A stretch of 52,815 nucleotides of DNA. It comes from a virus (Duplodnaviria > Caudoviricetes). Under the pieces are notes generated by a model. It was not told the DNA's origin. It searched no databases and saw nothing but the letters and a program-made list of their open reading frames with translations. Where the stretch lies: the IMG/VR virus record IMGVR_UViG_3300016667_000948, positions 1 to 52,815 of that record. One strand, 5' to 3'. Below are positions 10,876 through 52,815 of the stretch, piece by piece; within the stretch, counting starts at the first letter, position 1; each line of letters starts with the position of its first letter. Made by a program: the position numbers and the translations under genes.

Positions 10876-11613
10876 GTGGCAAACAATAAATACATTAAAA
10901 ACAGGAATGAGTGGCGGAAATCCTATCCTATAGGCGTTCCCCGGCGGCCTCCTGTAATTGTCACAGAAACTAAACTCGGTGCAGACGGCAATACATATAC
11001 ATCAACTTTTGATTTAAACCAAGTAATTCGTCACAGAGATGTTTATGAGTTACTTGGTGATACAAACAGTATTACCGGATTACTTGGAGAATATGATGAA
11101 GACTTAATTCATTTTAACAATGAAACTTATAAGTCTTTTTCATTCAATTTTACTTTTTCTAATAATCCTACTGTTGTATTTTCTCAAGGCACCGCAGATG
11201 GGGACCAGCCGAACACTGAAAACGTTAATATATTTGGCATAAGTAGAAACACCTCTGGAGGAGTTGTAGCTTTGTCTGCCCCATATTCTGGGACAATACG
11301 TTATAGGGCTGCATATGCTACTGCATATCCAAGTTATTTTACTGGTTCTATAGCCTCAATAGCGCCTACGGCGGGCGTATTTATTGCTAGCGTAGACAGA
11401 GAAGTGCCGGATAATAACAGCTATGTAACGGCAAGCTGGGCGACATTAGCTTCGGCTGGTCCAGCGATATTCCAATCTCCTTATGATGATAATTCAAACT
11501 TTGATGGCAACGTTGCATTAAGCACGAAATATGCGACATTGAATGGTTCTGGAGAAGTTATTGAAATTTCTGCGCCTATGAGCAGTTCAATTTACATCTT
11601 GGCAGTTCAGTAG
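10876..11613 (+). CDS. Putative virion structural protein
   Basis: Beta-rich S/T/N/G composition; first gene of the fibre cluster; GTG start 6 nt after ATAATTA. Confidence 0.6.
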   Translation: MANNKYIKNRNEWRKSYPIGVPRRPPVIVTETKLGADGNTYTSTFDLNQVIRHRDVYELLGDTNSITGLLGEYDEDLIHFNNETYKSFSFNFTFSNNPTVVFSQGTADGDQPNTENVNIFGISRNTSGGVVALSAPYSGTIRYRAAYATAYPSYFTGSIASIAPTAGVFIASVDREVPDNNSYVTASWATLASAGPAIFQSPYDDNSNFDGNVALSTKYATLNGSGEVIEISAPMSSSIYILAVQ

Positions 11614-11653
11614 TCCAGTAGAGAGATATTTAAACAAGAAATAGAGTTGTAAT

Positions 11654-14050
11654 ATGCCAATAGATTTCAGAGCATCGCAAATACAGACAAATAAAATTAT
11701 AGCCTCGGGCTCTACCGGTACATCAACTGGTGCTCGTCTTCTTGTATATCCTCATGTTGCCGACGATGGAACCTCTCCAAATCAAGGTTTTATAAATCAA
11801 AGCGTATTTAAAACTACTAGTGGTATTGGCACAGATATCTTTTTATTTGTTTCTGGCGGTATTGGTGAACGTAATGTCGGCGGCGCCCAATCGATTACAT
11901 GCTTTGGTGGCGATGTACACATTTCTGGAAATTTAACCGTAAATGGAACCTATCCATCTGGTGGAGGTGGTGGTTCTAATTTCTTCTGGTCCCCATCTAA
12001 TCCGTTTATCGAGGCTTCTGGTTCATTAACAATAACCGGATCCGGTTACTTTAAGGGAGGATTATCAGGTTCTCTCCAACAAGTTGCTCCAGGAGTTCCT
12101 TATCTCTTGGCAGGACCAAATATAACAATAGCTACAAACTCGCTTGGACAAGTTTCTATAACTGGAAGTGCAAGTGGTGGTGGTTCTTCATTCTATCGTC
12201 TTGAAGTTCTTGATTATTATTCTACAAATGCTACAACCGATACTGCTGCTGGACAAGTTATATTCCCAGCTAATCAGTTTACCGGATCTATCGTTCTTTA
12301 TGGTGTTATAGCAAATAGCAGCGCAACTGCAACTGGTAGCGTAAGATTATATAACGTTACAAGTGGCGCATATGTTGATATTGGCGGCGTTGGAAATCAA
12401 TACCTTTCAGTCAGCGGAACAACTCCAACAATTGTAAGTTCTGTTAATCTTATATCTGCAAGTAACTTTAACAGTTCTTCCCAGGCAATATACGAACTTC
12501 AAGTCTCTTCCAGTAATGGCGCTTCTTATGGCTTCTTTGGCGGATTCGAATTAAGACCATCTGGCAGCTTTACCGGTGTAACTTACGTAACGTCTTCTAC
12601 GTATTACACTTATATCTCCGGCACGTGGGAAGACGGTGGCAATAAGTTGGCAACAACATCGTCTGTTGCAATGGCAGGAAACCTTGGAACCGGATACTTT
12701 GCCAACAATGTAGGATCTGACGTATTCTTCTTTGTTTCTGGAAACAATGGCGGTGTTTCTGCTGGAAATGGTGTTGCTGTATTTGGAGGCGACGTTGTAA
12801 TATCTGGTGTTCTATACGGTGGTTCGCCTCTTAAAATCAGCGGCTCAATGCAGCAAGGATATCAAAATTCTGCTACTGGATTATATTCTCATGCTGAAGG
12901 CAGCGGAACACAGGCAACATATACCGGTGCTCACGCTGAAGGTGCTACAACTATAGCAGCAGGAAATTTCAGCCATGCTGAAGGTGATAGCACGGTTACA
13001 CTTGGCATTGCTTCACACGCTGAAGGACAAAATACTAATGCATCCGGGCAATATTCTCATGCTGAAGGAAATGGTTCTCAATCGGCTGGCAGTCATTCTC
13101 ACGCCGAAGGAAGATTGACACAAGCAAATGGACAAGAATCCCATGCCGAAGGAGAAGAAACTGTTGCTGGGGCTCGAGCATCACACGCTGAAGGTTATCA
13201 AACACAGGCAACTGCATTTTACACACATTCCGAAGGAGCTTCTACCGTAGCTTCAGCTACAGGCGCCCATTCCGAAGGACAAAGCACAACTGCCTCTGGA
13301 CAATATTCCCATGCTGAAGGAACTTCCAGCACGGCTTCTGGATATGCATCTCACGCAGAAGGTGGTGGCACGACAGCTCAAGGTGATGGAAGCCATACAG
13401 AGGGACAATATACTTTAGCTCTTGGAATTGGCTCTCATGCCGAAGGATATTATTCAACTGGTTCTGGAAATTATTCTCATGCCGAAGGATTATCAACAGA
13501 GGCAATTGGAACATATTCACATGCCGGGGGCATTTCAACAATAGCATCAGGTTCTGGGCAAACTGTTGTAGGAAAATATAATCAAAGAGATAATAATTTT
13601 TCTTTATTCGTTGTTGGTGATGGCACGGGAACAACAAATTCAAAAAGAGGCGACATTGTTCGTGTAAATCCTGGACCAACAATTGGAACAGGAATCATAG
13701 AAGTCACAGGTTCACTTTCTGTAAGCGGAACACAAAGCACTCTACATCAATATAATGGTCTTCGTTATTATCCAACCATAGTAACATCTCTTCCATATAC
13801 AGCATCTTTTAATGAATATATTATTGCTGTAAGCGCATCTGCTGGACCTGGTGTAGAACTTCCAGCTTCAGAGTTTGGCAGAACATTTATAGTTAAAGAC
13901 GTATCTGGTTCTGCTGCTTCTGATCTCATAATAATAACTGCTGCTGGTGGAGAACTTATTGATGGATCGCCTACTGCAACCATAGGCATTGATAATGGTT
14001 CTTATAAGTTTGTCTACTTTGGCTCTGGAATAGGATGGGGTATAGTCTGA
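11654..14050 (+). CDS. Tail fibre/adhesin with YadA-like head repeats
   Basis: 16 tandem 14-aa (S/A/T)H(A/S/T)EG repeats, a duplicated FVSG...FGGDV.ISG module and C-terminal GRTFIVKD.SG...IDG module. Confidence 0.85.
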   Translation: MPIDFRASQIQTNKIIASGSTGTSTGARLLVYPHVADDGTSPNQGFINQSVFKTTSGIGTDIFLFVSGGIGERNVGGAQSITCFGGDVHISGNLTVNGTYPSGGGGGSNFFWSPSNPFIEASGSLTITGSGYFKGGLSGSLQQVAPGVPYLLAGPNITIATNSLGQVSITGSASGGGSSFYRLEVLDYYSTNATTDTAAGQVIFPANQFTGSIVLYGVIANSSATATGSVRLYNVTSGAYVDIGGVGNQYLSVSGTTPTIVSSVNLISASNFNSSSQAIYELQVSSSNGASYGFFGGFELRPSGSFTGVTYVTSSTYYTYISGTWEDGGNKLATTSSVAMAGNLGTGYFANNVGSDVFFFVSGNNGGVSAGNGVAVFGGDVVISGVLYGGSPLKISGSMQQGYQNSATGLYSHAEGSGTQATYTGAHAEGATTIAAGNFSHAEGDSTVTLGIASHAEGQNTNASGQYSHAEGNGSQSAGSHSHAEGRLTQANGQESHAEGEETVAGARASHAEGYQTQATAFYTHSEGASTVASATGAHSEGQSTTASGQYSHAEGTSSTASGYASHAEGGGTTAQGDGSHTEGQYTLALGIGSHAEGYYSTGSGNYSHAEGLSTEAIGTYSHAGGISTIASGSGQTVVGKYNQRDNNFSLFVVGDGTGTTNSKRGDIVRVNPGPTIGTGIIEVTGSLSVSGTQSTLHQYNGLRYYPTIVTSLPYTASFNEYIIAVSASAGPGVELPASEFGRTFIVKDVSGSAASDLIIITAAGGELIDGSPTATIGIDNGSYKFVYFGSGIGWGIV
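12860..13555 (+). repeat. Coding tandem repeat, 16 x 42 bp (HAEG repeats)
   Basis: First and last His codons at 12890 and 13520 are exactly 15 x 42 bp apart. Confidence 0.9.
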
Positions 14051-24608: not shown

Positions 24609-25574
24609 ATGACCAAGTATCAACTACCACTTTTTGAAGATCCTACAACCCTTCCAACCGGAAAGCATCACGTTTCATATTCAGAGATTTCTGATTGGAT
24701 GGATTGTTCTTATCGTCACCGTCTTAAGCACGTTGAAAAGATCGTTCTTGGAAAGCCAAGTATCCATACAGAATATGGTCAGGTAATCCACGACGTTCTT
24801 GAGAACTATATTCTTGGCAAGCACGAGCTTAATGATGAAACGATTGCTGCTGCTACAAAGCAGTTTCGTGAGCATTGCGATAAGTTGAAGGCGGATCATC
24901 AAATTGAGGTTTCTGATAAGGACTTTAATGATTTTGCGGCTTCTATCCCACAGATTGTAAATGCAGTTCCAGCCTTTATGGATGAAACCTTCCCAGGTTG
25001 GACAGGTTTTGCAGCGGAGCACGCTCTATATGAGAGTGTAGCTGGTCAGACGAATAAGTGGTTTAAGGGCTATATTGACACCATCATTCGTATGCCCAAG
25101 AATACCCGTAAGAAGCGTGGTAGTTCGTTGCCAGATCAAGAGACAGAGAAGCCAGTTGTAATGCGCCTATCGGAGCTTGTAGGTCAGGTAGAGGGTGGAG
25201 AGAAACCAGAGTTTGGTGATGGATATGAGTTCTGGATTTTGGATTGGAAGACTACTTCATGGGGCTGGGATGCTATGAAGAAGAGGGATTTCCAGAAGCA
25301 GCTACAGCTTGTATTCTATAAGCATTATTTCTGCCGCCTATTCAATCTACGTCTTGATCAGGTTAAGTGTGGATTTGTCTTGCTTAAGAGAACGCCACGT
25401 AAGAGTGATAATAGCCGTTGCGAACTCGTCCCTGTAAGTGTAGGACCAAAGACCGAGGCAAAGGCTCTTGAGGTTCTAAACAATATGATTAATCAAGTAG
25501 CAAGTGGGCGTGCAATCAAGAACAGGGCTTCATGTAGGTTCTGTGATTATAACGGCACGGAGCATTGCACCTGA
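24609..25574 (+). CDS. PD-(D/E)XK nuclease, Cas4/AddB-like with 4-Cys Fe-S ligands
   Basis: SYSEI....DC, KGYID, ILDWKT, QLQLVFY and CRFCDY.....C. Confidence 0.88.
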   Translation: MTKYQLPLFEDPTTLPTGKHHVSYSEISDWMDCSYRHRLKHVEKIVLGKPSIHTEYGQVIHDVLENYILGKHELNDETIAAATKQFREHCDKLKADHQIEVSDKDFNDFAASIPQIVNAVPAFMDETFPGWTGFAAEHALYESVAGQTNKWFKGYIDTIIRMPKNTRKKRGSSLPDQETEKPVVMRLSELVGQVEGGEKPEFGDGYEFWILDWKTTSWGWDAMKKRDFQKQLQLVFYKHYFCRLFNLRLDQVKCGFVLLKRTPRKSDNSRCELVPVSVGPKTEAKALEVLNNMINQVASGRAIKNRASCRFCDYNGTEHCT

Positions 25575-25721: not shown

Positions 25722-26237
25722 ATGAATATAGCATTTCGTACTTTGTTAAAATCACTTGGTCGTCCTGTTTATGGAATAATTCATGTTGGAACAAATCTTG
25801 GAGAACAAGGCAGAACGTATTCTGACAATGGAGTGAACCACGTGTTATGGTTAGATCGTAATCGCAATAATTTGTATGAACTATACAACAAAACAAAAAT
25901 GTTTCCATTGAAACAGCAATATATAACTGAAGTCTTTTTAGAGCGTGATATACCAAACGTTTCGAAAACGTTCGACACCTTTCAGAAAGAAAATATTGCC
26001 AAGATGCCAATTGAAGTCTATGATACTCTTATTGTTGACGTAGATGATGGAAGTGAATTTAAAGTGCTGCAAGGTTTTGAAAAAAATCTAAGTCGTTCTC
26101 CTGCATTCATTAAAAACGTTCATACAAAAGTAAGAGGGACAGGGGATATGGACAAATATCTTTCCCAGTTTGGTTTTAAGCAGGTTGTAAATAGTCTTAA
26201 CGAGATTGGCTGGGGCGATGCCCTATATTCCAGGTGA
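25722..26237 (+). CDS. Divergent FkbM-family methyltransferase
   Basis: IIHVGTNLGE, EFKVLQGF and WGDALY parallel the motifs of 30273-30911. Confidence 0.72.
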   Translation: MNIAFRTLLKSLGRPVYGIIHVGTNLGEQGRTYSDNGVNHVLWLDRNRNNLYELYNKTKMFPLKQQYITEVFLERDIPNVSKTFDTFQKENIAKMPIEVYDTLIVDVDDGSEFKVLQGFEKNLSRSPAFIKNVHTKVRGTGDMDKYLSQFGFKQVVNSLNEIGWGDALYSR

Positions 26238-26241
26238 TAAT

Positions 26242-27246
26242 ATGAAGATAAGTGCATACTGCACAACTCGTAACGCAGAAGAGATGGAATATCCATATTT
26301 GGAATCCATACGTAGTCATTTGGCTTTTGCTGATGAAGTAGTTGTATTTGACACAAGCGATGGTAAAGACAAAACGTTAGAAACGTTGCAGGAATTGGCA
26401 TCAGTTGAATCAAAGCTAAAGATTGTTCATAGTGATAAGATTGATTGGAATGCCCCTAATCATGGAGTATTCGATGGCTATGTAAAAACTTTATCTAGAA
26501 AGCAATGCACAGGAGATATTCTTTGGCAGTTTGATATCGATGAAGTTGTCCACGAGAAACACGTTACACTTATAAGACCATTAGCTGAAACATTATACAA
26601 ACAAAATGGTTTTGACCTAATGGCGCTTCCTGTTGTTGATTACTGGGGTCGAGAAGGAAAAGCCAGATTAGACGTAACCGTGTGGAAGTGGAGGCTATCA
26701 AAGAATAAGCCAGACATTATTCATGGGATCCCAATTCATTTGCGTAAGCATGAAAATGGATTGTTATATGCAAATCATGGAACAGATGGTTGCGATTATA
26801 TTTCTGCAACAACAGGAAATATTATACCGTGTGCTGGATATCTTCCTCCTGGTTTTGATCAGCTAAAGCACGCCGCCATTCGTGATGAAAAGCTTGTTCC
26901 AAAAGCTGAAAAGTTTTTGAATGAAGTATTGACTCAATTGCCCGGTGTACATCATTATTCTTGGTTTAACATAGAACGTAAGATTAGAAATTTTAGAACA
27001 TTCTGGAATGCATCTTGGAAGAGTCTTTACAACGAGGATAGAGACGAAAAGACAAATCCATTCTTCCCTGGTCTTACCTGGACAGAGATAACAGATGATA
27101 TGATTAAGCAAAAGGCTTTAGAGCTTGAGCAAGGAACTGGTGGACACGTATTCCATCGTCCTTGGGATGGAAGTAAAAATAATTCATATAGAGTTGAAAT
27201 GGGTCATCCGGATATAGTAAAAGATTGGATTGAGACAAACAAATGA
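26242..27246 (+). CDS. GT-A fold (GT2-like) glycosyltransferase
   Basis: MKISAYCTTRN, ADEVVVFD...D.T, CTGDILWQFDIDE (DxD) and HHYSW; ATG 26242 after AGGTG. Confidence 0.85.
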   Translation: MKISAYCTTRNAEEMEYPYLESIRSHLAFADEVVVFDTSDGKDKTLETLQELASVESKLKIVHSDKIDWNAPNHGVFDGYVKTLSRKQCTGDILWQFDIDEVVHEKHVTLIRPLAETLYKQNGFDLMALPVVDYWGREGKARLDVTVWKWRLSKNKPDIIHGIPIHLRKHENGLLYANHGTDGCDYISATTGNIIPCAGYLPPGFDQLKHAAIRDEKLVPKAEKFLNEVLTQLPGVHHYSWFNIERKIRNFRTFWNASWKSLYNEDRDEKTNPFFPGLTWTEITDDMIKQKALELEQGTGGHVFHRPWDGSKNNSYRVEMGHPDIVKDWIETNK

Positions 27247-28097
27247 AAATAGTTACTAATGATTATGGCTGTGGAACTTCAAGCTCGATACTTGACTATA
27301 ATACCGATAACGTAATTGTTGTATCAGAACAAAATCACAAGCATTTATTTGATGTTCGTGGGGAAGATTTGTTGTTTGTTGGTCATGACTTTTTAATGTA
27401 TCTTTGGGATAGTCCAATCTATCGTTCTCATTGGAAAAACTATAAAGGCAAAAAGCACATTTACTGTTTCGAAAAAATTGATTGCATAGTGCCAGAATGG
27501 CAACAGAAAAGTCATTATAGTCTTTCTTTATGTCAACAGTTTACTAATAGCTTTTATGTAAGCGATGAACAAGATTGTCGCAAGTATGGGATTAAATGGC
27601 TACCTCAATGGGCATCTAGAAGATTCTATGATCAGCGTTTACAGGTGCCACAAGAAAATCGTATAACCTTTAGTGGTCAAGCAGGCGTCCTCGGTTATGA
27701 CAAAAGAGATCAGCTCCTAAACCTTATAGCAAATGATCTGGATTTAAAAGACAAATTTTACATAAGCAATAAAGCAAGAACAAAATCTTGGGATGATTAT
27801 ATAACAAATTTTCTTAATCATAAGCTTATACTGGCTCCAATTGGAAACTTTAAAGGATTCAATACGAGAACATATGAGGCGCTAACATCTGGTAGAATAT
27901 TGCTTCAGCAGGTTGATAGTGAATATAAATGGCACATTGATTCCATATCAAAGTTTAAGAATGTAAAATTTTTCGAATCATTCGCAGAATTAAAAAAGAT
28001 TCTAATGTCTATAGAATCAGAACAATTAATTGTAATTGAGTCTGATGCTCAATTCAAAGAAAATAATTTCTTTCAAAGAATAGAGCTAGTAAAATGA
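27243..28097 (+). CDS. Glycosyltransferase-like protein (GT-B, CgeB-like C-terminus)
   Basis: ITFSGQ, R..LL and NTRTYEALTSGRILL. Confidence 0.7.
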   Translation: MKIVTNDYGCGTSSSILDYNTDNVIVVSEQNHKHLFDVRGEDLLFVGHDFLMYLWDSPIYRSHWKNYKGKKHIYCFEKIDCIVPEWQQKSHYSLSLCQQFTNSFYVSDEQDCRKYGIKWLPQWASRRFYDQRLQVPQENRITFSGQAGVLGYDKRDQLLNLIANDLDLKDKFYISNKARTKSWDDYITNFLNHKLILAPIGNFKGFNTRTYEALTSGRILLQQVDSEYKWHIDSISKFKNVKFFESFAELKKILMSIESEQLIVIESDAQFKENNFFQRIELVK

Positions 28098-28738
28098 AAA
28101 AAATAATTGCGTTTTCTTTATGGGGAAACAATCCAAAATATACTATAGGCGCATTATATAATGCAGAACTAACAACAGAAATATATCCTGGTTGGGTCGC
28201 CCGATTTTATATTGGACAAAGCACTTCGGCTAACGTTTCTCGCAAACTAGAAAAGCTCGGTTCAGAGATTGTATTAATGAATGAACCTGGAGATTGGAAA
28301 GGAATGTTTTGGAGATTCTATCCGGCTGGAGAGGAAGGCGTAGAAGTAATGCTTTCACGTGATGCTGATAGTCGTCTAAACTTAAGAGAAAAAGCAGCAG
28401 TTGATGAATGGCTGGCGTCAGATAAAGACTTTCACATAATGAGAGATCATCCTGCACATGATGCTCCTATAATGGGCGGTATGTGGGGAGCTCGAGGAAC
28501 CATTCTTAAAGACATTAAGAAGATGATTGACGAATATCAAAAGGGAGATTTTTGGCAAGTTGATCAAAATTTCTTACGTGAGAAAATATATCCTCTAATA
28601 AAAGATAAATCATTTGTTCATGATGAATTCTTTGAAAAGAAACCATTTCCAACCGAGAGACAAAACAAAGAATTTGTTGGAGACGTGTTTGATGAAAACA
28701 ACATCAGACATTCAGAATATTGGAAAGCGATAAAATAA
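28094..28738 (+). CDS. Putative GT-A fold glycosyltransferase
   Basis: IAFSLWG..PKY, MFWRF, SRDADSR (DxD), FHIMRDH, MGGMWG and DQNFL; located in the glycan locus. Confidence 0.62.
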   Translation: MKKIIAFSLWGNNPKYTIGALYNAELTTEIYPGWVARFYIGQSTSANVSRKLEKLGSEIVLMNEPGDWKGMFWRFYPAGEEGVEVMLSRDADSRLNLREKAAVDEWLASDKDFHIMRDHPAHDAPIMGGMWGARGTILKDIKKMIDEYQKGDFWQVDQNFLREKIYPLIKDKSFVHDEFFEKKPFPTERQNKEFVGDVFDENNIRHSEYWKAIK

Positions 28739-28739
28739 T

Positions 28740-29459
28740 ATGTCGAACCCCGTAATATCAGTAATAATTCCTACGTATAATCGCTTCGAATATTTGATTC
28801 AAGCAATAAAAAGTGTCAAACAACAAAAATATGAAAATATAGAAATTATTGTTGTCAATGATCACAGTACTGATGAAAAATACTATGAATACAACTGGAA
28901 AAATGAAAATATAATCTTCAAAACAACAAAGTATCGAAGTAAAGAAATATATGGGTTTCCATGTGCCGCATATGTTCGTAATGAAGGTGTTGAAATTTCA
29001 AACGGCTCATTTATTGCTTTTCTTGATGATGACGACTTATGGCTGGAAAACAAAACAGATGATCATATAATTCCTTTCATAGAAGAAAGCAAATGTAGCA
29101 AAAACTCATTATCATCTTCAGATGGATATTGGGGGAATAAACCAAATCGATATCTGCCAACTGAAAAATATGTTAGATATAACGAAGAAAAATATAGTCA
29201 CTATATCTTAAGTAAATATAAGATGGAATCTTGGCCTAATATATTGACGAAAAATGAAATAGCCATACATAACTCTATAGTTACATCGTCTGTTATAGTT
29301 CATTCAAAGTTGTTCAAAAAAATTGGTTTTCCAATTTTGCCAAATGGTCAAGAAGATTATCAATGTTGGCTTAATTGCCTACAACATACTAATTTGAGGT
29401 ATTATAATATGCCCACTTTTTATTATGATGATGCACATGGATATGGAAGAAATTATTAA
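28740..29459 (+). CDS. GT2 glycosyltransferase
   Basis: ISVIIPTYNR, EIIVVNDHSTD, RNEG, IAFLDDDD and EDY. Confidence 0.93.
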   Translation: MSNPVISVIIPTYNRFEYLIQAIKSVKQQKYENIEIIVVNDHSTDEKYYEYNWKNENIIFKTTKYRSKEIYGFPCAAYVRNEGVEISNGSFIAFLDDDDLWLENKTDDHIIPFIEESKCSKNSLSSSDGYWGNKPNRYLPTEKYVRYNEEKYSHYILSKYKMESWPNILTKNEIAIHNSIVTSSVIVHSKLFKKIGFPILPNGQEDYQCWLNCLQHTNLRYYNMPTFYYDDAHGYGRNY

Positions 29460-30289
29460 TGAGTAACAATATCAATATTATAGTATATTCTTGTAACCGA
29501 GCTGCACAGCTTGATTTATTGCTCCGAAGTTTAAAACACTATTTTAAAGAATATTCGGAAGCAAATATATCTGTTGTATATGCATATACTAATGATGACT
29601 ATGAAACAGCATATAATATTGTTCGAGATGAAAATTTAGACGTAAATTTCCTTACGGATGCAAAAATTGGTTCTCTAAAAGAGACAACAATGCATGTTTT
29701 GAGAAAAGAAAACAATTTAACAATGTTTTTAGTTGATGATATTGTGTTCAAAGATTATTTTTCACTATCCGATCAAGAAATTAATTTAGTTGCATCTAAC
29801 GAAGAATTAATAGCCACGTCTTTGCGATTATGGAAAGGAATCGATCATTGCTATGCTACCAATAGCAGCTCTCCGGTACCAAATTTTGTTAAAGGAAACG
29901 TTTGGAATTGGACATTTGCTTCTGGAGATTGGGGCTATCCAATGTCAATAGATGGAAACATATATCGCACGTCTTTCATATATGAACAAATAATGAATGT
30001 TGATTTTTCGAATCCAAACAAATTAGAAGAACAATTAGCTGCCAAACCAGACCGAAAAAAAACATATATGTCATGTTACGTTAATTCAAGTAAACTTTTG
30101 AATATTCCAGCAAATATTGTACAAAAAGCTTTTCCAAACCGTCATGGCAATATCGTATCTGTTGAGGAACTTAACAGCAAATATTTAAATGGATATCGTA
30201 TACAATATAATGATTGGTTAAGTTATAGAAATAATACTGTACACGTTGAGTTAGAATATAAATGGAGTAAAAATGTTAATACCATATAA
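29459..30289 (+). CDS. GT-A fold glycosyltransferase-like protein
   Basis: IIVYSCNRAAQLDLLLRS, MFLVDD, YPMSIDG and NPNKLE; located in the glycan locus. Confidence 0.68.
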   Translation: MSNNINIIVYSCNRAAQLDLLLRSLKHYFKEYSEANISVVYAYTNDDYETAYNIVRDENLDVNFLTDAKIGSLKETTMHVLRKENNLTMFLVDDIVFKDYFSLSDQEINLVASNEELIATSLRLWKGIDHCYATNSSSPVPNFVKGNVWNWTFASGDWGYPMSIDGNIYRTSFIYEQIMNVDFSNPNKLEEQLAAKPDRKKTYMSCYVNSSKLLNIPANIVQKAFPNRHGNIVSVEELNSKYLNGYRIQYNDWLSYRNNTVHVELEYKWSKNVNTI

Positions 30290-30911: not shown

Positions 30912-30921
30912 CGAGGCACAT

Positions 30922-31545: not shown

Positions 31546-31547
31546 AC

Positions 31548-33538: not shown

Positions 33539-34870
33539 ATGTCAGAAGAGAACACATTTCTCACGTCCTTTAATTTCAAGAAGAAGTATAAAGTAATCAC
33601 ACTTTCAGATCATCCACTTGCACCATCAGGTGTTGGTGTTCAAGCACGGTTCTTGATTGATGGTCTTATCAAGACAGGTCAATGGTCATTCCGCTGCTTA
33701 GGCGGCGCAATGAAGCACGCAAAGTATGATACGATAGCGGTTAACCCTGACTTCATTGTAAAGCCTGTAGACGGCTTTGGAAGCAAGGAACTTATACGCC
33801 AACTTCTTATCACAGAACAACCTGATGCTATTTTCCTATTCACAGATCCACGTCAGTTTACATGGCTTTGGGAAATGGAAGACGAAATCCATCAAGTATG
33901 TCCAATCGTCTATTGGCACGTTTGGGATAATGATCCATACCCAGCATTTAACTTCCCATGGTATGAGAGCACTGATCTAATCAACTGTCTTTCCTATAAG
34001 ACCTTTGAATTAGTTAAGCCTCATTTCCCAGAGAAGACAAACTACATTCCTCATACCTTTCCAAAAGAAGTATACAACCCTCTTCCAGAAGAACAAATAA
34101 AGCAACTTAAACAACAGAACTTTGGTCCAAAGGCTGATTGGTTTAAGGCTCTATGGGTTAATCGTAATGCTACACGTAAGATGCCAAACGATGTTTTATT
34201 TGCTTGGAAGACATTCCTTGATGATCTTGAGAAGAAAGAGGGACACCGTAATGGAGTTTTAATCATGCATACAGATCCAAATGATATGGAAGGTCCAAAT
34301 CTTCTTGCTGTATCTGATATGCTTGGATTAAACGACAACGTTTGGTTCTCAAATGATCGTCTACAATTTGAACAAATGAACGTTATGCATAATCTTTCAG
34401 ATGTAACTGTTAACGTTTCAAAGAATGAAGGATTTGGTCTTTCAACTCTAATCTCTCTTCAAGTTGGCAAGCCAATCATTGCTCTTAAGACCGGCGGTGA
34501 AACCCGTCAGGTAGAAGATTATCGTAACGGTTATCAATATGGTGTTGCTATTGAGCCAGCCAAGCGTTCTCTTGTTGGTTCACAGATGGTACCATATATC
34601 TTTGAAGACTATTGCACAGAGCGCCAACTTGCAGATGCTTTTATGGAGATTTATAGTTGGAGCCCAGAGAAGAAAGCAGAGTTCCGTGAGAAGGCTGCTG
34701 AATATCTTGAGCACGAGTTCAAGTATGAAAATATGGTTCAACAATGGCATGAAACTATGTTAAAATGTGTAGAAGACTTCAAGGCAAGAAAAGAAGCTGG
34801 ACAGAATAAGCGTTGGAAGCTTCAAGGCATTAATCCAGCTCCTGCTAACAAGTTGATCAATATTAAGTGA
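33539..34870 (+). CDS. GT4-family glycosyltransferase
   Basis: SDHP..PSGVG, TDPR, NRNATRK and NEGFGLS. Confidence 0.88.
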   Translation: MSEENTFLTSFNFKKKYKVITLSDHPLAPSGVGVQARFLIDGLIKTGQWSFRCLGGAMKHAKYDTIAVNPDFIVKPVDGFGSKELIRQLLITEQPDAIFLFTDPRQFTWLWEMEDEIHQVCPIVYWHVWDNDPYPAFNFPWYESTDLINCLSYKTFELVKPHFPEKTNYIPHTFPKEVYNPLPEEQIKQLKQQNFGPKADWFKALWVNRNATRKMPNDVLFAWKTFLDDLEKKEGHRNGVLIMHTDPNDMEGPNLLAVSDMLGLNDNVWFSNDRLQFEQMNVMHNLSDVTVNVSKNEGFGLSTLISLQVGKPIIALKTGGETRQVEDYRNGYQYGVAIEPAKRSLVGSQMVPYIFEDYCTERQLADAFMEIYSWSPEKKAEFREKAAEYLEHEFKYENMVQQWHETMLKCVEDFKARKEAGQNKRWKLQGINPAPANKLINIK

Positions 34871-34884
34871 TAAGGGATATAGTA

Positions 34885-36066
34885 ATGACAAAGAAAACAG
34901 TTATTCTTCGTGGTCCAGTATTAACCGAAAGTGGTTATGGTGTTCATGCTCGACAGGTAGCTCGTTGGCTATTTGATTTGGCAGATAAGACTGGAAATAT
35001 TGATGTTGTTACAGAGCCTCTTCCTTGGGGTGCTACACCTTGGCTTGTTGATGTATATGCGCATGATGGTCTTGTAGGTCGTCTTATTCAAGCCGCTGGC
35101 AAGAGAGATAAGTATGATGTATCTCTTCAGCTTCAGTTGCCAAATGAATGGAATCCTTTCCTTGCTGATTTTAACGTTGGTTTAACTGCGGGCGTTGAAA
35201 GCGACGTATGTAATCCTGCGTGGATTTCAGCTATCAATCGTATGGATCTTGTTATAGTTCCATCAGAGTTTGTTAAGAGTGTATTTACAAATACTGGCGA
35301 AGTAAAGACGAAGGTTGTAGTTGTTCCGGAAGCATTTATTGACTCTGTAGCAAAGCCAGAACTTCCACAGCTTGATTTAGAAGATGTTAAGACAGATACT
35401 AATTTCTTGGTGTTCGGTCAGATTACTGGTAACAATCCGGAGAATGATCGTAAGAACATGTTTTATACGGTTAAGTGGTTATGTGAGCAATTCAAAGACA
35501 ATCCAGACGTTGGTGTCATAGTAAAGACAAATACTGGCAGGCAAACTGTTGTTGATCGTATGCGAACAACAAATTTATTGGCACAACTTACGTTAGAAGT
35601 TAAGAAGGGCGCAGAGTTTCCAAAGATTTATCTTCTTCACGGGGATATGTCAGACGATGAAGTAGCTGCCCTATATCGTCATCCAAAGATTAAAGCTCTT
35701 GTGTCTCCTACTCGTGGAGAAGGATTTGGTCTTCCAATTCTTGAAGCAGCAGCATCTGGACTTCCGGTTATTGCTACTGGGTGGAGCGCACATACAGAGT
35801 TCCTTGGCAAAGGAAAGTATGTTAAGCTTGATTATCGTCTTGAACAGATTCATCCAAGCCGTGTAGATAATCAGATTTGGATGCCAAATGCCAAGTGGGC
35901 AAACGTCAAGGAAGACGATTTCAAGCATCGTGTAAAGAAGTTTGTAGAAAGCCCACAGATGCCACAGCAATGGGCTAAAGAACTTGCAGATACTCTTAAG
36001 AAGGAATATTCTTTTGAATCAGTAGCAGCTCAATATGCAGAAGTTCTCAAGGACGTATTAGAATGA
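34885..36066 (+). CDS. GT4-family glycosyltransferase
   Basis: SGYGVHAR, VIVPS, DRKN and RGEGFGLPILEAAASGLPVIAT; ATG 34885. Confidence 0.9.
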   Translation: MTKKTVILRGPVLTESGYGVHARQVARWLFDLADKTGNIDVVTEPLPWGATPWLVDVYAHDGLVGRLIQAAGKRDKYDVSLQLQLPNEWNPFLADFNVGLTAGVESDVCNPAWISAINRMDLVIVPSEFVKSVFTNTGEVKTKVVVVPEAFIDSVAKPELPQLDLEDVKTDTNFLVFGQITGNNPENDRKNMFYTVKWLCEQFKDNPDVGVIVKTNTGRQTVVDRMRTTNLLAQLTLEVKKGAEFPKIYLLHGDMSDDEVAALYRHPKIKALVSPTRGEGFGLPILEAAASGLPVIATGWSAHTEFLGKGKYVKLDYRLEQIHPSRVDNQIWMPNAKWANVKEDDFKHRVKKFVESPQMPQQWAKELADTLKKEYSFESVAAQYAEVLKDVLE

Positions 36067-36473
36067 CAATATTTTTTGGAATTTTGAGTTTGATGCTTCT
36101 AATTCTATTAGGAGCATCAATATTTTATCTAATTCGATTTGCTCGGATTATTATGATCATTGAAGATGATTTTTCTGATGCCGTTGAAGCTTTAGATGAC
36201 ACAGAGAAAACATTAGAAAAAATACTTGGCATGAGATTGTTCTTTGATAGCAAAGAAGTTCAATTGGTCGTGCAAGAGGCAATGTCAGAAGTTAAGAAGA
36301 GTAAAATGTCTGTAAATCGTGTTGCTCTTAAGTTTGTTGAACGTAGTAAACAAAAATATACAGTAGTGGTCGAAGAAGAACCAGATATACGTGAACTTCA
36401 AGAGAGAATCATGAGAGAGCGTCTACTCCGAGGAGATATGGTAGATGAAAATACGCAAGAAAACTTCCGTTGA
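36063..36473 (+). CDS. Protein with N-terminal membrane anchor
   Basis: IFFGILSLMLLILLGASIFYLI followed by helical region; ATGA overlap. Confidence 0.7.
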   Translation: MTIFFGILSLMLLILLGASIFYLIRFARIIMIIEDDFSDAVEALDDTEKTLEKILGMRLFFDSKEVQLVVQEAMSEVKKSKMSVNRVALKFVERSKQKYTVVVEEEPDIRELQERIMRERLLRGDMVDENTQENFR

Positions 36474-41126: not shown

Positions 41127-41597
41127 ATGGCACGCCTATCATTTAAAGATGTTGGTACACAGGGGTTTGGAAATAACAACAATATCCAAACTACCGTTGC
41201 ACCTAAACCAATTGGCATCAAAACTCCAATTGAGTTAGATAAAACGCAATCTATCAACATATTCAAGATGCACTATAACACACTTGATCAGATAAACGAT
41301 AATCTTCGTAATTTAATATTGACAAATCACGGAGAGCGACTGGGCATGTATGATTTGGGCGGAAATCTTCGTCCATTGTTAACAGACTACAGTAACAAAG
41401 ATAATTTCGACAAAGAAGCCATGAAAAGAATAAAGGCAACTGTGGCGAAATATATGCCTTTTGTTAATTTGCTGGGGTATGAATCCAGAGTTGATCGACA
41501 AGATAATACGTATACCGGTGTTATCATAATGTTGATTGCTTATCAAATAGCAAATTATCCAGAACAATTAATTGAAGTTACATTATTTATAACGTGA
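41127..41597 (+). CDS. Baseplate wedge gp25-like protein
   Basis: QINDNLRNLILTNHGERL...LGGNL...KYMPFV. Confidence 0.88.
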   Translation: MARLSFKDVGTQGFGNNNNIQTTVAPKPIGIKTPIELDKTQSINIFKMHYNTLDQINDNLRNLILTNHGERLGMYDLGGNLRPLLTDYSNKDNFDKEAMKRIKATVAKYMPFVNLLGYESRVDRQDNTYTGVIIMLIAYQIANYPEQLIEVTLFIT

Positions 41598-41601
41598 TAA
41601 A

Positions 41602-43443
41602 ATGTCAAACGATTCAAAAAAACAACTCCTTAAACAAGTAAGACAACGCAGATATCTTAACAAAGATTTTGATGCTCTTCGAAATGATTTGCTAGATTAT
41701 GCTCGTTCTTACTTTCCAGATAACATCAGAGACTTCTCCGAAGCTTCTCTTGGTGGTTTGCTCCTAGATATGGCGGCATACGTAGGAGATGTGCAAAGTT
41801 ACTACCTAGACCATCAGTTTCATGAATCGTTTCCAGAAACTTCAGTTGAACCAAACAACATCGAACGCCACTTACGCCGAGCGGGAGTGCCTATAGTTGG
41901 AGCATCGCCAGCAGTTGTTTCTGTTACATTCTACATTAAAGCACCAACAGACGGAACAAATACAGGAAATCCTGATCTCACTTCTTTACCAATCATTAAA
42001 GAAGGAACAATCGTTAAAGCTACAAATGGCGTAGAATACGAATTAACAGAGAATCTAGACTTTGCAGAGACAAAGGTTGATGGCACCTTGAAAGCATCAA
42101 TTATTGTAGGAAACACTAATGCCAACAATATTCCACAAAATTATATCTTAAGCAGAGATGGAATATGCATATCTGGAAAAAGAATCACAGAAACGTTTCC
42201 TATCAGCACATTCATACCTTTTAGATCGATTGTACTTTCAAACCCAAACGTTTCCGAAATAATCAAAGTAGCTGACTCATCTGGGAATGAATATTACGAA
42301 GTTGAGTCTTTGACACAAGATACCGTATATAAGCGTGTTACTAACATAAAATATGATCAGAAGTTGGTACCAGAAAATATCGTACCAGTTCCAGCACCAT
42401 ATAGATTTACTAAAAATACATCATTACAAACCAGAATAACCAGTTTGGTTTTTGGAGGCGGCAGAGCTTCTACAATTAATGATGACATTATTCCAGATCC
42501 TAGCGAGTTCTCTTTGCCTCTATATGGCAAGAAAACATTTTCTAGATTCACTATCAATCCGGGTAACTTACTTCAAACAACTACATTTGGAGTGATAACA
42601 GAAAATACAACATTAAGCATACAATATCGATATGGTGGCGGCTTAAAACACAATGTCGAGGCTGAAACAATTAATAACGTTTCGTCATTGAATATATTCT
42701 TTCCACGTAATCCATTGCCAAGTGTAGCTGCTTTCGTTCGTAACTCTGTGGACGTTATTAATCTTGAAGCTGCTTCTGGTGGAGAAGATCCTCCAACGGT
42801 TGCTGAACTTAAGGCAAAGATACCAGCATTCTTGGGAATGCAAAACCGTATCGTGTCTAAAGAAGATTTGTTGGCTCGGGTATATACACTTCCTTCAAAC
42901 TTTGGACGTGTATTCAGAGCTGCAATAGAACCAAATCCAAATAATCCTTTGGCTTCTCAATTGTTTGTTATTTGTAGAAATGAAAGCAATGAACTAATAA
43001 TTGCCCCAGACACCCTTAAGAAAAATCTATCTAGTTACCTAAACCAATATCGACTTATCTCTGATGCTATCGATATATTGGATGCTCGTGTTATTAATAT
43101 AACGCTTAAGTTTACCGTGGTTATTGACCCAACTCAAAATAAAGAATTAATCTTAAGAAACGTTCTATCAAAAATCAAAGATTATATGAACATTAGAAAT
43201 TTTGAGATTAATCAACCGATAATGTTAAGTGACATACAAAATATCATTTTCAACGTTGAAGGTGTTGCTTCTATTGTTAGTCTAACCATTGGCAACATAT
43301 ATAACATTGTTGAAGATAGAGTATATTCCGAAGAACAATTTAACGTTAACGCAAACACGAACAATAATATTATATTTGGTCCACCTGGATCCATATTTGA
43401 ACTCAAATATCCTGACTACGATATCATCGGAACTGCTGTATAA
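41602..43443 (+). CDS. Baseplate wedge gp6/J-like protein
   Basis: YLNKDF, DFSEASLG.LLLDMAAYVGD..SYYLD.Q, YRYGGG..HNV, ASGGED and QNRIVSKED. Confidence 0.88.
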   Translation: MSNDSKKQLLKQVRQRRYLNKDFDALRNDLLDYARSYFPDNIRDFSEASLGGLLLDMAAYVGDVQSYYLDHQFHESFPETSVEPNNIERHLRRAGVPIVGASPAVVSVTFYIKAPTDGTNTGNPDLTSLPIIKEGTIVKATNGVEYELTENLDFAETKVDGTLKASIIVGNTNANNIPQNYILSRDGICISGKRITETFPISTFIPFRSIVLSNPNVSEIIKVADSSGNEYYEVESLTQDTVYKRVTNIKYDQKLVPENIVPVPAPYRFTKNTSLQTRITSLVFGGGRASTINDDIIPDPSEFSLPLYGKKTFSRFTINPGNLLQTTTFGVITENTTLSIQYRYGGGLKHNVEAETINNVSSLNIFFPRNPLPSVAAFVRNSVDVINLEAASGGEDPPTVAELKAKIPAFLGMQNRIVSKEDLLARVYTLPSNFGRVFRAAIEPNPNNPLASQLFVICRNESNELIIAPDTLKKNLSSYLNQYRLISDAIDILDARVINITLKFTVVIDPTQNKELILRNVLSKIKDYMNIRNFEINQPIMLSDIQNIIFNVEGVASIVSLTIGNIYNIVEDRVYSEEQFNVNANTNNNIIFGPPGSIFELKYPDYDIIGTAV

Positions 43444-52276: not shown

Positions 52277-52277
52277 T

Positions 52278-52815
52278 ATGCCTATCTTTGATCAATTTGA
52301 AACCGAACCTTATGCCACGTATTCTGGGTCTTATACAGATCGGTATTACTATGGCTCTATTTTTAACGACAACTATTCATTAACTCGGAGCACTATAGCT
52401 ATTAAGACAACTGGAGTTATATCATCTTCTTTTTTTAAGAAAGATTTTTCCAGATCAAATCTATTAGGCTTTGTATACGGAGATTATATTGCTTCTAGAA
52501 CACAAAATGGAAATGCAAAAATATTCTCCACTGAATTGATATATGACAGTTTAGTCCCATCTCCTATAGGTTTAATGAAGATAGATAACGCTGCTCCTCC
52601 ATATATGAATACAACTTCAAGCTGGAAACAAGTTTTTTCAGCCGCTTTATCAGGTTCAAATAACTTATTAAGAAATTCTTTAAGTGACAGTTCTGTCCAT
52701 GCAATATTATCTGCGCAAAATAACATTATTCCAACTTCTTCTGGGGATTTTTTATCAGTACCTCCGATAAATTCTTTTGCAAATTCGACTTGGTTAAGTA
52801 ATTTCCCATTTCAAT
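52278..52815 (+). CDS. Partial structural protein running off the window end
   Basis: ATG at 52278 (MPIFDQFETEPYATYSGSYTD...) open to the end of the window; not in the ORF track. Confidence 0.72.
   Translation, partial: MPIFDQFETEPYATYSGSYTDRYYYGSIFNDNYSLTRSTIAIKTTGVISSSFFKKDFSRSNLLGFVYGDYIASRTQNGNAKIFSTELIYDSLVPSPIGLMKIDNAAPPYMNTTSSWKQVFSAALSGSNNLLRNSLSDSSVHAILSAQNNIIPTSSGDFLSVPPINSFANSTWLSNFPFQ

Follow-up and report, generated by a model that had tools for sequence, protein, structure and literature searches.

Ser/Thr-Gly-Ser on the outer tail proteins of a very large uncultured water phage is probably an attachment site for the phage's own sugars

Described glycosylation systems and the phage locus

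Chloroviruses encode Gmd and glycosylate their own capsid protein with their own enzymes, the glycans being N-linked at atypical sites. The GT4 systems GtfA/GtfB and SdgA/SdgB O-glycosylate the serine-rich repeat adhesins of Gram-positive cocci. Mycobacteriophage virions are also said to be O-glycosylated by phage-encoded glycosyltransferases, as reportedly described by Freeman et al. in Cell Host Microbe in 2023. One account places mycobacteriophage virion glycans at the C-terminal ends of the capsid and tail-tube subunits (PMC12619734), and the sugar ("LPS / cell-wall") islands found in large cyanomyoviruses and in jumbo phages are read in another paper as host-surface modification (Iyer et al. 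2021, PMC7824862).

Here, we analyze a 52,815-nt stretch of phage DNA (the window; Table 1) in which Ser/Thr-Gly-Ser ([ST]GS) on outer tail proteins is a candidate sugar-attachment site, because the word is over-abundant and its excess travels with one sugar-transferring enzyme, GT4 no. 2. A literature search found no published description of such a sequon in phages, in line with the sequence-only reading of this DNA, which knew of none either. As in the mycobacteriophages, the glycosyltransferases are phage encoded, and they are proposed to act in the cytoplasm on particle proteins of the same phage. Unlike the C-terminal glycans of that account, the candidate sites here are internal loop tripeptides on peripheral baseplate, fibre, and sheath proteins; they share a defined word, and the major capsid protein of the relative Flavobacterium phage immuto is not enriched (1 [ST]GS versus 0.6 expected). 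By both sequence (E 2e-4) and fold (Foldseek E 7e-18, TM 0.66/0.74), GT4 no. 1 finds its best PDB match in the chlorovirus GT4 enzyme B736L of PBCV NY-2A (3oy2; a putative glycosyltransferase by its PDB title, which names no acceptor), although this match is barely better than those to MshA or BshA and has 16% sequence identity. In contrast to the N-linked chlorovirus glycans, our candidate sites would be of the O type, on Ser/Thr.

The likeness to GtfA/GtfB lies in two adjacent GT4-type genes, a cytoplasmic location (proposed here), and S-x-S-like targets at serines of adhesin-like surface proteins; in addition, an Atlas structural lead ties open reading frame (ORF) 29459 to the GT-D fold of that pathway (TM 0.86). 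The NCBIfam models for GtfA and SdgA score 15.7 and 17.6 bits, well short of cut-off, GtfA is absent among the Foldseek matches listed for GT4 no. 1, and the long SxSx repeats of serine-rich repeat adhesins are replaced here by isolated tripeptides at beta-turns. Like the cyanomyovirus and jumbo-phage islands, the present island combines hypervariable GT-A enzymes, methyltransferases, and NDP-sugar enzymes that are polymorphic between close relatives. Unlike them, it has a conserved core GT4 pair at its edge, and hydropathy analysis of its ORFs predicted no membrane helices and revealed neither a flippase nor a polymerase nor any further membrane protein.

Table 1. Features of the window, with [ST]GS counts given as observed versus expected
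Feature	Coordinates	Strand	Evidence
Fibre with YadA-head/Hep_Hag-like SHAEG repeats, 798 aa	11654..14050	+	13 [ST]GS vs 4.4
Fibre-region protein, 341 aa	14035..15060	+	3 [ST]GS vs 0.6
Long tail fibre, 1368 aa	16132..20238	+	PHROG tail fibre (phrog_454, E 4e-13); 3 [ST]GS vs 2.1
PD-(D/E)XK nuclease, conserved left flank of island	24609..25574	+	Pfam
Variable part of glycan island	25722..31545	+	Pfam, NCBIfam, Atlas leads
Methyltransferase-like protein, weak fragment match	25722	+	FkbM, E 0.047
GT2-like protein, weak	26206	+	Below Pfam cut-off
Unknown proteins	27243 and 28094	+	27243: Atlas GT-like lead only
GT2, firm	28740	+	Pfam
GT-A/GT-D-like lead	29459	+	Atlas structural lead only (GT-D, TM 0.86); no match to GT-D in Pfam search
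FkbM methyltransferases, two, firm	30273 and 30922	+	Pfam
Fcl-like GDP-6-deoxyhexose synthase	31548-32492	+	NCBIfam Fcl, 226 bits (equivalog cut-off 500)
GDP-mannose 4,6-dehydratase Gmd	32492-33475	+	NCBIfam gmd, 448 bits (cut-off 415)
GT4 no. 1, retaining GT-B glycosyltransferase	33539..34870	+	Pfam GT4
GT4 no. 2, candidate motif-reading enzyme	34867..36066	+	Pfam Glycos_transf_1; GT4-conflict, 33.1 bits (cut-off 26)
Small protein, 136 aa, strongly hydrophobic N-terminus	36063..36473	+	Hydropathy 2.66 at residue 3
Inner baseplate: gp25-like (41127-41597) and gp6-like (41602-43443)	41127..43443	+	PHROG, Pfam Baseplate_J; 0 motifs
Peripheral baseplate protein, 529 aa	43452..45041	+	3 [ST]GS vs 0.6
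LamG-domain baseplate wedge, 1148 aa	45041..48487	+	10 [ST]GS vs 1.0
Second LamG-domain protein, 942 aa	49448..52276	+	6 [ST]GS vs 1.1
Partial structural protein, 179 aa, running past window end	52278..52814	+	2 [ST]GS vs 0.4

An ordered tripeptide on outward-facing tail proteins

The 15 structural proteins of the window (8076 aa) contain 42 [ST]GS, compared with a shuffle mean of 12.3 (SD 3.5, z 8.6) and matched by 0 of 2000 shuffles, whereas the 33 remaining proteins contain 2 versus 3.7 expected. The contrast proposed by the sequence-only reading is borne out, and its counts for individual proteins were exact, including the zeros in core proteins (39122-40840 and the gp25- and gp6-like proteins) and the single occurrences in the enzymes PhoH and Prim-Pol. 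It also listed 3 motifs in the long tail fibre, where 2.1 are expected and we see no enrichment; the SAS/SSS/TAS variants it noted as numerous are weak in the window ([ST]AS, 18 versus 13.9 expected; [ST]SS, 23 versus 15.0). The enrichment depends on residue order, with four reordered words close to the 12.3 expected for each (GS[ST] 8, [ST]SG 13, S[ST]G 10, and G[ST]S 9). SGS is the fourth-ranked tripeptide of the structural set after the repeat words HAE, SHA, and EAS, and since the 42 motifs are encoded in 33 different ways at the codon level, the signal is at the level of protein and not DNA.

When four genomes are pooled, X-G-S is in excess only for X=S (187 versus 66) and X=T (135 versus 54), S-G-X only for X=S, and S-X-S only for X=G. 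Residues next to the motif are hydrophobic in 61% of cases at -1 and 56% at +1 (background, 41%), a bias not found at these positions in control genomes. What is enriched is [ST]-G-S between hydrophobic residues; of the [ST]-[GAS]-S sequon suggested earlier, the form with a middle glycine stands, and those with alanine or serine are weak. It would be very surprising if this were a biologically meaningless artefact of composition or annotation (Ser/Gly/Thr-rich loops, low complexity, or wrong ORFs). Local clumping exists, with reordered words at 1.0 to 2.0 times expectation in the LamG family, and Gly-rich ORFs inflate the genome-wide reordered words of Microcystis phage Mel-JY01. However, these LamG proteins have [ST]GS at 6.5 times expectation, shuffling never attains the window count, codon spellings are diverse, and SGS and TGS are the top two of all tripeptides in the baseplate region of Mel-JY01 and rank second and fourth in that of immuto.

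The tag is carried by peripheral baseplate and fibre proteins of this lineage, and in immuto also by the sheath (7 [ST]GS versus 1.3; portal, terminase, and tape measure, 0). The families of 43452 (mean 4.57 versus 0.82 expected, n=68), 45041, 49448 (8.36 versus 1.60, n=11), and 52278 (4.82 versus 1.12, n=17) are enriched 4.3- to 6.1-fold lineage-wide, in contrast to the gp25-like (0.03 versus 0.07, n=61) and gp6-like (0.19 versus 0.45, n=67) families, so that the split between outer and inner proteins holds across the whole lineage. Among PDB sequences, the fibre 11654 matches a Hep_Hag protein as well as the BpaC head (7o23, E 1e-6), and it is 50% identical across 184 aa to an immuto tail spike; Pfam and PHROG searches matched the fibre-region protein 14035 to no family. 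Non-virion proteins show no avoidance of the motif, with 15 versus 9.6, 40 versus 32.4, and 32 versus 16.8 in three such sets.

Conservation is higher for serines within the motif (0.76) than for those elsewhere (0.58). The 120 homologues of the LamG wedge 45041 carry a mean of 10.4 motifs versus 1.6 expected; among them, SGS is kept at site 293 in 118, at site 667 in 115, and at site 902 in 109, and seven motif positions are fixed in the family. Outside these seven columns, each homologue still carries 4.78 motifs versus 1.33 expected, spread so that the family has 85 motif columns in all. Conservation and turnover together look like ongoing selection on the motif.

A serious rival, which we think unlikely but well worth weighing, is a lineage-specific structural turn used in folding or trimer packing, a hairpin or loop solution inherited and repeatedly re-invented by beta-rich outer tail domains, with the GT island aimed elsewhere, at host envelope polysaccharide, blocking other phages, or at phage DNA. 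The AlphaFold model of 45041 places all 10 motifs next to strands, in loops or hairpin turns, the flanks are hydrophobic, the seven fixed positions would suit a structural role, and immuto fibres contain stretches, for example SGSF-SGSF and then GDGSGLTG, resembling structural repeats. Against this, the generic turn words DGS (ratio 1.6 versus 1.5 in controls, four genomes pooled), NGS, SGN, and SGT exceed expectation no more than they do in controls; the [ST]GS excess is also seen at columns that are not conserved and spans the unrelated folds LamG, Hep_Hag, and sheath. The same folds also occur elsewhere without the motif: where SGS aligns, the LamG relatives in the PDB (4dqa, PTX3) carry different residues.

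A conserved GT4 pair beside a hypervariable island

The start of GT4 no. 2 overlaps the end of GT4 no. 1. The AlphaFold model of GT4 no. 1 (pLDDT 88.6) has an ordinary GT-B fold without an obvious peptide-binding insertion, and the gene is found in 20 of 22 long relatives' records, with 4767 homologues at E <= 1e-10. GT4 no. 2 is found in 21 of 23 such records and has homologues in immuto, Mel-JY01, and Rhodothermus phage RM378; its E-x7-E pair (E285, E293) is invariant in an 8-sequence alignment, and its Pfam "GT4-conflict" match does not point to protein targets. The two misses are contigs cut upstream. Both genes are core genes of the lineage rather than sporadic ones, which speaks against a purely structural turn, and the small protein 36063-36473 is conserved directly 3' of the pair.

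In immuto, Mel-JY01, RM378, and the 484-kb phage LR756508, the GT4 genes adjoin nuclease, polymerase-like, GuaB-like, or reductase genes and not the baseplate, so their adjacency to baseplate genes in the window is a module junction. As gene order in L020, immuto, Mel-JY01, and LR756508 shows, the PD-(D/E)XK nuclease on the left flank of the window's island is conserved and adjoins GT4 no. 1 in distant relatives. This replication and nucleotide context would also fit DNA glycosylation and lends the structural-turn explanation some weight, as does the interpretation of jumbo-phage GT clusters as makers of an outer polysaccharide that pre-empts other phages (Iyer et al. 2021, PMC7824862).

The island itself is low in G+C (0.32 at 28-32 kb), and its content differs between close relatives, one of which has a largely different island even with a GT4 no. 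1 that is 96% identical. The Gmd/Fcl-like pair is 77 to 94% identical in close relatives, and Gmd is absent from Mel-JY01 and RM378. Because the Gmd/Fcl/FkbM island is hypervariable, a "methyl-fucose" glycan would be restricted to the window's sub-lineage; the methylated fucose glycan put forward earlier is possible there and does not extend to the lineage. That proposal had counted about 8 GT-like proteins, of which 3 are firm by Pfam (28740, 33539, and 34867), and three FkbM methyltransferases, of which two are firm. Its Gmd is confirmed, and its Fcl falls below the equivalog cut-off.

Distribution of the excess and a possible reading of the tag

The genome-wide observed/expected ratio is 2.50 to 2.74 in the window and the cultured relatives immuto, Mel-JY01, and RM378 (2.68), and 0.73 to 1.52 in 11 other phage genomes, which have no GT4 no. 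2 orthologue. A partial T4 set has a ratio of 0.65, with 7 versus 8.5 in the peripheral baseplate and fibre proteins, and P8625 has 6 [ST]GS versus 8.2 despite a 60%-identical Hep_Hag fibre segment and a ConA-like protein. P-SSM2, where GT4 no. 2 was sought and not found, has a sugar island of the cyanomyovirus kind and shows no excess (1.24). In Streptomyces phage Samisti12, a gene remotely similar to GT4 no. 2 (E 1e-10) is present, yet the ratio is 1.13. Judged from these genomes, the excess is no general property of fibres or folds.

LR756508 is sister to immuto and Mel-JY01 in the gp6 tree (support 95/98) and therefore nested inside the clade. It has retained both GT4 no. 1 and a large island of glycan genes, and a profile search did not find GT4 no. 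2. At 1.39, its ratio does not exceed that of the reordered words, and the proteins orthologous to 43452 and 45041 contain 0 and 2 motifs; that a related baseplate lacks the excess is a further point against the structural turn. At the far end, RM378 has a gp6 more remote than that of T4-like phages, on a long branch, and has both GT4 homologues, that of GT4 no. 2 being weak (hhalign 94%, E 1e-7) with a His aligned to the second Glu of E-x7-E. The deep branching order of the GT4 no. 1 tree is not settled. Across this sampling the motif excess follows GT4 no. 2, a link based on a single loss (LR756508) and a single distant positive (RM378). Among the glycosyltransferases for which co-occurrence had been suggested, 34867 tracks the excess; 33539 is kept by LR756508 without it, and 26242 belongs to the hypervariable island. 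The sequon idea survives in its order-specific enrichment and its co-occurrence with GT4 no. 2, and not in its A/S variants or its whole GT set.

The tag might instead be read by something other than a glycosyltransferase (such as a lineage-specific kinase, an acyl- or ADP-ribosyl-transferase, a chaperone of assembly, or a protease), the co-loss in LR756508 being coincidental. By themselves, the genome comparisons establish no more than a lineage-specific factor or pressure of some kind, and the candidate search covered the window, roughly 15% of a ~350-kb genome (estimated from relatives G020, 322.5 kb and 93% complete, and G009, 320.5 kb and 81% complete). We nevertheless hold this to be improbable: Pfam, PHROG, and NCBIfam revealed no such enzyme within the window, GT4 no. 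2 is the one tested candidate that matches the distribution, and a large soluble sugar-building island adjoins it in every relative examined.

Hydrophobic-[Ser/Thr]-Gly-Ser-hydrophobic is a short, selected tag on the outward-facing tail proteins of a huge-phage lineage, and probably an attachment site for the phage's own sugars. We put at about even the chances that GT4 no. 2 reads it as the first sugar transferase, with the glycan island elaborating the product; the reader, a sugar as the modification, the acceptor residue, and any role of the glycan are what we infer. In the infected cell's cytoplasm, this retaining GT-B enzyme would place a first sugar on a serine or threonine of the tag during tail-protein production, and the soluble enzymes of the hypervariable island would then extend and decorate it. 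The window's island, with its GT2-type transferases, two FkbM methyltransferases, Gmd, and Fcl-like enzyme, would yield a methylated glycan derived from a GDP-6-deoxyhexose, and the islands of its relatives would yield quite different glycans.

The phage fragment and its Ser/Thr-Gly-Ser excess

The 52.8-kb window is the entire record of this genome and a piece of a large myovirus-type phage, carrying a replication block (Prim-Pol, a GuaB-like protein and a PD-(D/E)XK nuclease), a sugar-enzyme island, and a baseplate/fibre module with gp25-like, gp6-like and two LamG proteins. IMG/VR relatives reach 320-322 kb at an estimated completeness of 81-93%, so the window represents roughly 15% of a ~350-kb genome. 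The nearest named phages are remote (gp6-like identity, 31-32%): Flavobacterium phage immuto, Microcystis phage Mel-JY01 and the uncultured 484-kb LR756508.

Features of the window and of related phages, with their coordinates
Genome	Position	Feature	Observation
Window	35-1305, 6786-8180	Matrixin-type zinc peptidase, then fibronectin-III protein; GroEL-like chaperonin gene (minus strand)	Peptidase with hydrophobic N-terminus
Window	9463-10848	PhoH-like ATPase	Fused N-terminal PIN nuclease domain
Window	16132-20238	Tail fibre, 1368 aa	G+C 0.45-0.47 vs ~0.37 across the remaining window; rich in EAS-type repeat words; [ST]GS not enriched, unlike neighbours; may be a fibre module exchanged recently
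Window	26206 (start)	Island gene	Under Pfam cut-off
Window	27243, 29459 (starts)	Island genes	Atlas leads
Window	28740 (start)	GT2	Passes Pfam cut-off; TAGT (DNA glycosyltransferase family) 23.9 bits, under cut-off 27.5
Window	33539-34870	GT4 no. 1	Passes Pfam cut-off
Window	34867-36066	GT4 no. 2	Passes Pfam cut-off; GT4-conflict 33.1 bits vs cut-off 26, C-terminal part only
Window	36063-36473	136-aa protein directly after the GT4 pair, overlapping its stop codon	Very hydrophobic N-terminus; conserved among relatives; matches no known family
Window	36445 (start)	Part of baseplate module
immuto	36 kb	QueF-like 7-cyano-7-deazaguanine reductase	Adjoins DNA polymerase; hints at deazaguanine DNA modification in immuto
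immuto	95-101 kb	Fibres	Block [ST]GS-F/I ... G-D-G-S-x-L-T-G-I, several times per protein, near N-termini; suggests a conserved unit of the fibre shaft or for fibre attachment
Mel-JY01	83.4-84.9 kb	GT4 no. 1 annotated as two ORFs (190 + 302 aa)	Gene genuinely split or record frameshifted; motif excess present all the same
LR756508	305-324 kb	Sugar island	Two GT29 sialyltransferase-like proteins, NeuB, cytidylyltransferase, GT10 fucosyltransferase, two GT25, two sulfotransferases, Gmd and Fcl; the toolkit for a sialylated, fucosylated, sulfated glycan, unusual in phage

The [ST]GS counts made by eye in the sequence-only reading were each exact on recount, and the enrichment that it proposed is borne out by shuffling. 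The 15 structural proteins of the window contain 42 motifs against 12.3 ± 3.5 expected, a number reached by 0 of 2000 composition-preserving shuffles, and the 33 other proteins contain 2 against 3.7. The signal depends on residue order, with the reordered words GS[ST] (8), [ST]SG (13), S[ST]G (10) and G[ST]S (9) each to be set against the same 12.3. Among all tripeptides enriched in the structural set SGS ranks fourth, behind words belonging to SHAEG and EAS repeats. Since 33 different codon strings spell the 42 motifs, the signal lies at the protein level, which rules out a DNA-level motif.

The broader sequon originally suggested, [ST]-[GAS]-S, holds for glycine in the middle position, with alanine and serine only weakly raised in the window (18 versus 13.9 and 23 versus 15.0). 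Pooling the four enriched genomes after removal of ORFs with more than 20% Gly, we observe that X-G-S is enriched for X = S (187 versus 66) and X = T (135 versus 54) only, S-G-X for S only, and S-X-S for G only. DGS has a ratio of 1.6, close to that of controls (1.5), and the variants SAS, TAS and TVS have ratios of 1.4, 1.8 and 1.8, respectively. In the window proteins the flanking residues on both sides are hydrophobic or small, and in the pooled genomes the hydrophobic share is 61% at position -1 and 56% at +1, versus 41% in the background; the motifs of control phages display no such bias.

Genome-wide, the excess is found in the window, immuto, Rhodothermus phage RM378 and Mel-JY01. In Mel-JY01 the reordered words are also inflated genome-wide, owing to Gly-rich ORFs; in its baseplate region the top two tripeptides of all are SGS (29 versus 4.3) and TGS (20 versus 2.8). 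In immuto SGS and TGS rank second and fourth among tripeptides. A partial set of 27 T4 proteins gives 8 motifs against 12.4 expected, and its peripheral baseplate and fibre subset 7 against 8.5. A ranking of tripeptides in LR756508 gave no outstanding word that might serve as an alternative sequon.

Genome-wide [ST]GS content relative to per-protein composition, for ORFs of at least 100 aa
Genome	Observed/expected	Remark
This window	2.74
immuto	2.50
RM378	2.68
Mel-JY01	2.55
S-PM2	1.52
Syn9	1.16
Ma-LMM01	0.90
SPO1	0.85
KVP40	1.25
P8625	0.73	With homologous Hep_Hag fibre and ConA-like protein
P-SSM2	1.24	Sugar-gene-rich
S-CBS4	1.27
TJE1	1.16
Samisti12	1.13
LR756508	1.39

Conservation and setting of the motif in tail proteins

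Across IMG/VR relatives the motif pattern splits outer from inner proteins. A comparable division appears in immuto, where enrichment is seen in the sheath (7 [ST]GS, 1.3 expected) and in several proteins of the fibre or neck region; no motif occurs in the portal, terminase, tape measure, hub or head-completion proteins, and the major capsid protein contains a single one for 0.6 expected.

Mean [ST]GS per protein in families of IMG/VR relatives
Family	Mean observed	Expected	n
43452, peripheral baseplate	4.57	0.82	68
45041, LamG baseplate wedge	9.81	1.62	64
49448, second LamG protein	8.36	1.60	11
52278, partial structural protein	4.82	1.12	17
gp6-like	0.19	0.45	67
gp25-like	0.03	0.07	61

Of more than a thousand relatives of the LamG wedge protein 45041, the best 120 average 10.4 motifs against 1.6 expected. 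Both serines of SGS are kept at position 293 in 118/120 sequences, at 667 in 115/120, at 902 in 109/120 and at 351 in 100/120, and conservation in this family is 0.76 for motif serines versus 0.58 for other serines (Mann-Whitney p 0.02). Beyond seven conserved columns, each homologue still carries 4.78 motifs against 1.33 expected, with 85 alignment columns occupied in all, and no reordered word exceeds twice its expected number. For the LamG orthologues of immuto, Mel-JY01 and LR756508, alignments at 23-25% identity proved too poor for a column-wise comparison of SGS.

In an AlphaFold model of 45041 (71 sequences; mean pLDDT, 73, and ~90 in the LamG domain), all ten motifs lie in loops or two-residue hairpin turns beside strands; five of them fall within residues ~170-370. 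This loop or turn position is exactly where a tight turn would be placed, and it favors the main rival explanation, namely, that the motif is a structural turn peculiar to the lineage and that the sugar genes serve the host envelope or DNA. The same folds elsewhere do without the motif, however, and on balance we regard this explanation as unlikely. In solved LamG relatives, unrelated residues occupy the positions aligned to SGS; hence, the LamG fold as such does not include the word. Together with the T4 set and the control phages lacking the excess, these structures rule out a generic property of fibres or LamG proteins.

The sugar island and the GT4 pair

Besides the glycosyltransferases that pass Pfam cut-offs, the firm parts of the island are two FkbM methyltransferases and Gmd (448 bits versus a cut-off of 415), and an Fcl-like enzyme scores 226 bits, under the equivalog cut-off. 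A GT-D fold for 29459 was considered and not retained, the structural likeness extending to both GT-A and GT-D models as an Atlas lead with no Pfam match. The stretch from nuclease to Gmd is hypervariable between relatives: one with a 96%-identical GT4 no. 1 has ~13 unrelated ORFs in this interval, encoding a dehydrogenase, aminotransferases, acetyltransferases, WbqC and methyltransferases. Given this variability, and the absence of Gmd from Mel-JY01 and RM378, the methylated fucose-containing glycan proposed at first is limited to this sub-lineage, where it is possible, and does not extend elsewhere.

Jumbo-phage glycosyltransferase clusters are interpreted as host-surface modification by Iyer et al. 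(2021). Such islands (LPS/O-antigen) are expected to include membrane or priming parts, whereas the window island has none: in its ORFs from 25722 to 36066 no 19-residue stretch reaches 1.6 (Kyte-Doolittle) and no membrane helix is predicted, and flippase, polymerase, GtrA/GtrC-type and lipid-carrier priming transferase families are absent from the window by Pfam. Its soluble transferases may nevertheless act on host lipid-linked intermediates. Host-surface islands are also sporadic and polymorphic, which is true of the interior of this island but not of the GT4 pair, as GT4 no. 1 is present in 20/22 and GT4 no. 2 in 21/23 long records of relatives. Both genes are missing from the same two contigs, each of which is cut ~7 kb upstream of the LamG gene. 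All informative records carry both genes, and no LamG-family relative without them was found. The GT4 genes of relatives are 52-96% identical to the window copies, a conservation exceeding that of the LamG protein.

GT4 no. 1 has 4767 homologues at E <= 1e-10. Its predicted model is an ordinary GT-B fold (pLDDT, 88.6); in both sequence and fold chlorovirus B736L is its top PDB match, barely ahead of MshA and BshA. GT4 no. 2 has a Glu-x7-Glu pair that is invariant in an 8-sequence alignment. Of the named phages, immuto and Mel-JY01 carry orthologues of both genes, and orthologues are also present in RM378 and LR756508. In RM378 the neighbor gene p014 encodes a divergent GT4 no. 2, matched by hhalign (94% probability; E 1e-7) and by a profile (E 1.6e-9). 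In LR756508 the nuclease and GT4 no. 1 are again paired, and the island behind them is a different and very rich one; despite this island the phage lacks the excess, with 0 motifs in its orthologue of 43452 and 2 in that of 45041. A profile search for GT4 no. 2 in LR756508 gave no candidate at all. Co-occurrence of the motif with the transferases therefore splits, as GT4 no. 2 tracks the excess and GT4 no. 1 is kept by the excess-free LR756508.

As the GT4 no. 1 tree is a polytomy at depth, a gp6-like tree was used in its place to position LR756508, with one relative (L014) scored as positive although its contig lacks the GT region. LR756508 is sister to immuto and Mel-JY01 (support, 95/98), and this trio groups with the window's clade, apart from T4-like phages; an association of GT4 no. 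2 and motif thus requires a loss in LR756508. RM378 joins the window's side on a long branch, and its gp6 scores below T4-like gp6 against the family profile, but it still has both GT4 homologues and the excess. The pairing of the excess with GT4 no. 2 is thus seen in one co-loss (LR756508) and one distant positive (RM378). Samisti12 has a remote GT4 no. 2-like gene, yet no excess.

In immuto, Mel-JY01, RM378 and LR756508 the GT4 neighbors are nuclease, polymerase-like, GuaB-like or reductase genes, with the baseplate far off. The baseplate adjacency in the window is consequently a module junction, and synteny was dropped as an argument. That the GT4 genes accompany replication genes is a further point for a structural turn with sugar genes of other purpose. 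DNA base glycosylation of the T4 alpha/beta-GT or TAGT type would be expected among replication or nucleotide genes and with a base hydroxymethylase, and it is the former setting that these four phages show. The T4-type late promoter TATAAATA, sought as a sign of joint expression of the GT genes with late genes, has no copy on the coding strand.

A proposed glycan tag on the tail surface

Mycobacteriophage virion O-glycosylation shares phage-encoded glycosyltransferases with the window (Pfam), but its sites, according to PMC12619734, are at the C termini of capsid and tail-tube proteins, whereas the window motifs are internal, on baseplate-periphery and fibre proteins. An analogy with the GtfA/GtfB system is unsupported, with an NCBIfam score for GtfA of 15.7 bits versus a cut-off of 574.6 and SdgA also far under its cut-off, and with best fold matches lying elsewhere. 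GtfA-type GT4 enzymes have a characteristic extra domain, in contrast to the plain model of GT4 no. 1, and the GtfA/GtfB substrate is a long Ser-rich dipeptide repeat, in contrast to single tripeptides between hydrophobic residues. Full-text searches brought up no account of a phage sequon of this kind, nor staining or mass spectrometry data on glycans of these phages' virion proteins, and no useful papers on Mel-JY01 or on the virion proteins of RM378.

Taken together, the sharpness of the word, its absence from the same folds elsewhere, its turnover at non-conserved positions, its restriction to the outer tail and the co-loss of a glycosyltransferase are better accounted for by a tag that a lineage-specific factor reads than by a preference for turns. 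GT4 no. 2 would be the best candidate reader of this tag, and the variable island enzymes would build the remainder of the glycan, a scheme that, judged from sequence, we consider about evenly poised between right and wrong. The fuller picture is put forward more tentatively, a little short of an even chance: an abundant lineage of huge aquatic phages may have its own cytoplasmic protein O-glycosylation, with a hydrophobic-[S/T]-G-S-hydrophobic sequon, a dedicated GT4 reader, and glycans from a hypervariable island on sheath, baseplate periphery and fibres. This is directly testable, since immuto (host Flavobacterium sp. LMO8), Mel-JY01 (Microcystis elabens) and RM378 (Rhodothermus marinus) are cultured and have both the excess and the GT4 pair. 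Even if the sequon reading is false, the ordered excess needs explaining, because the same folds in other phages lack it.

Should the idea hold, no glycosylation sequon would have been defined in a bacteriophage before, and glycosylation sites would become predictable from sequence. Virion glycosylation would extend beyond actinobacteriophages and be a core trait of an environmental lineage that is very common, and a purpose would be found for the sugar-gene islands that make big aquatic phages so puzzling by their size. Glycan diversity would then be fought out on the surface of the tail and not on that of the host.
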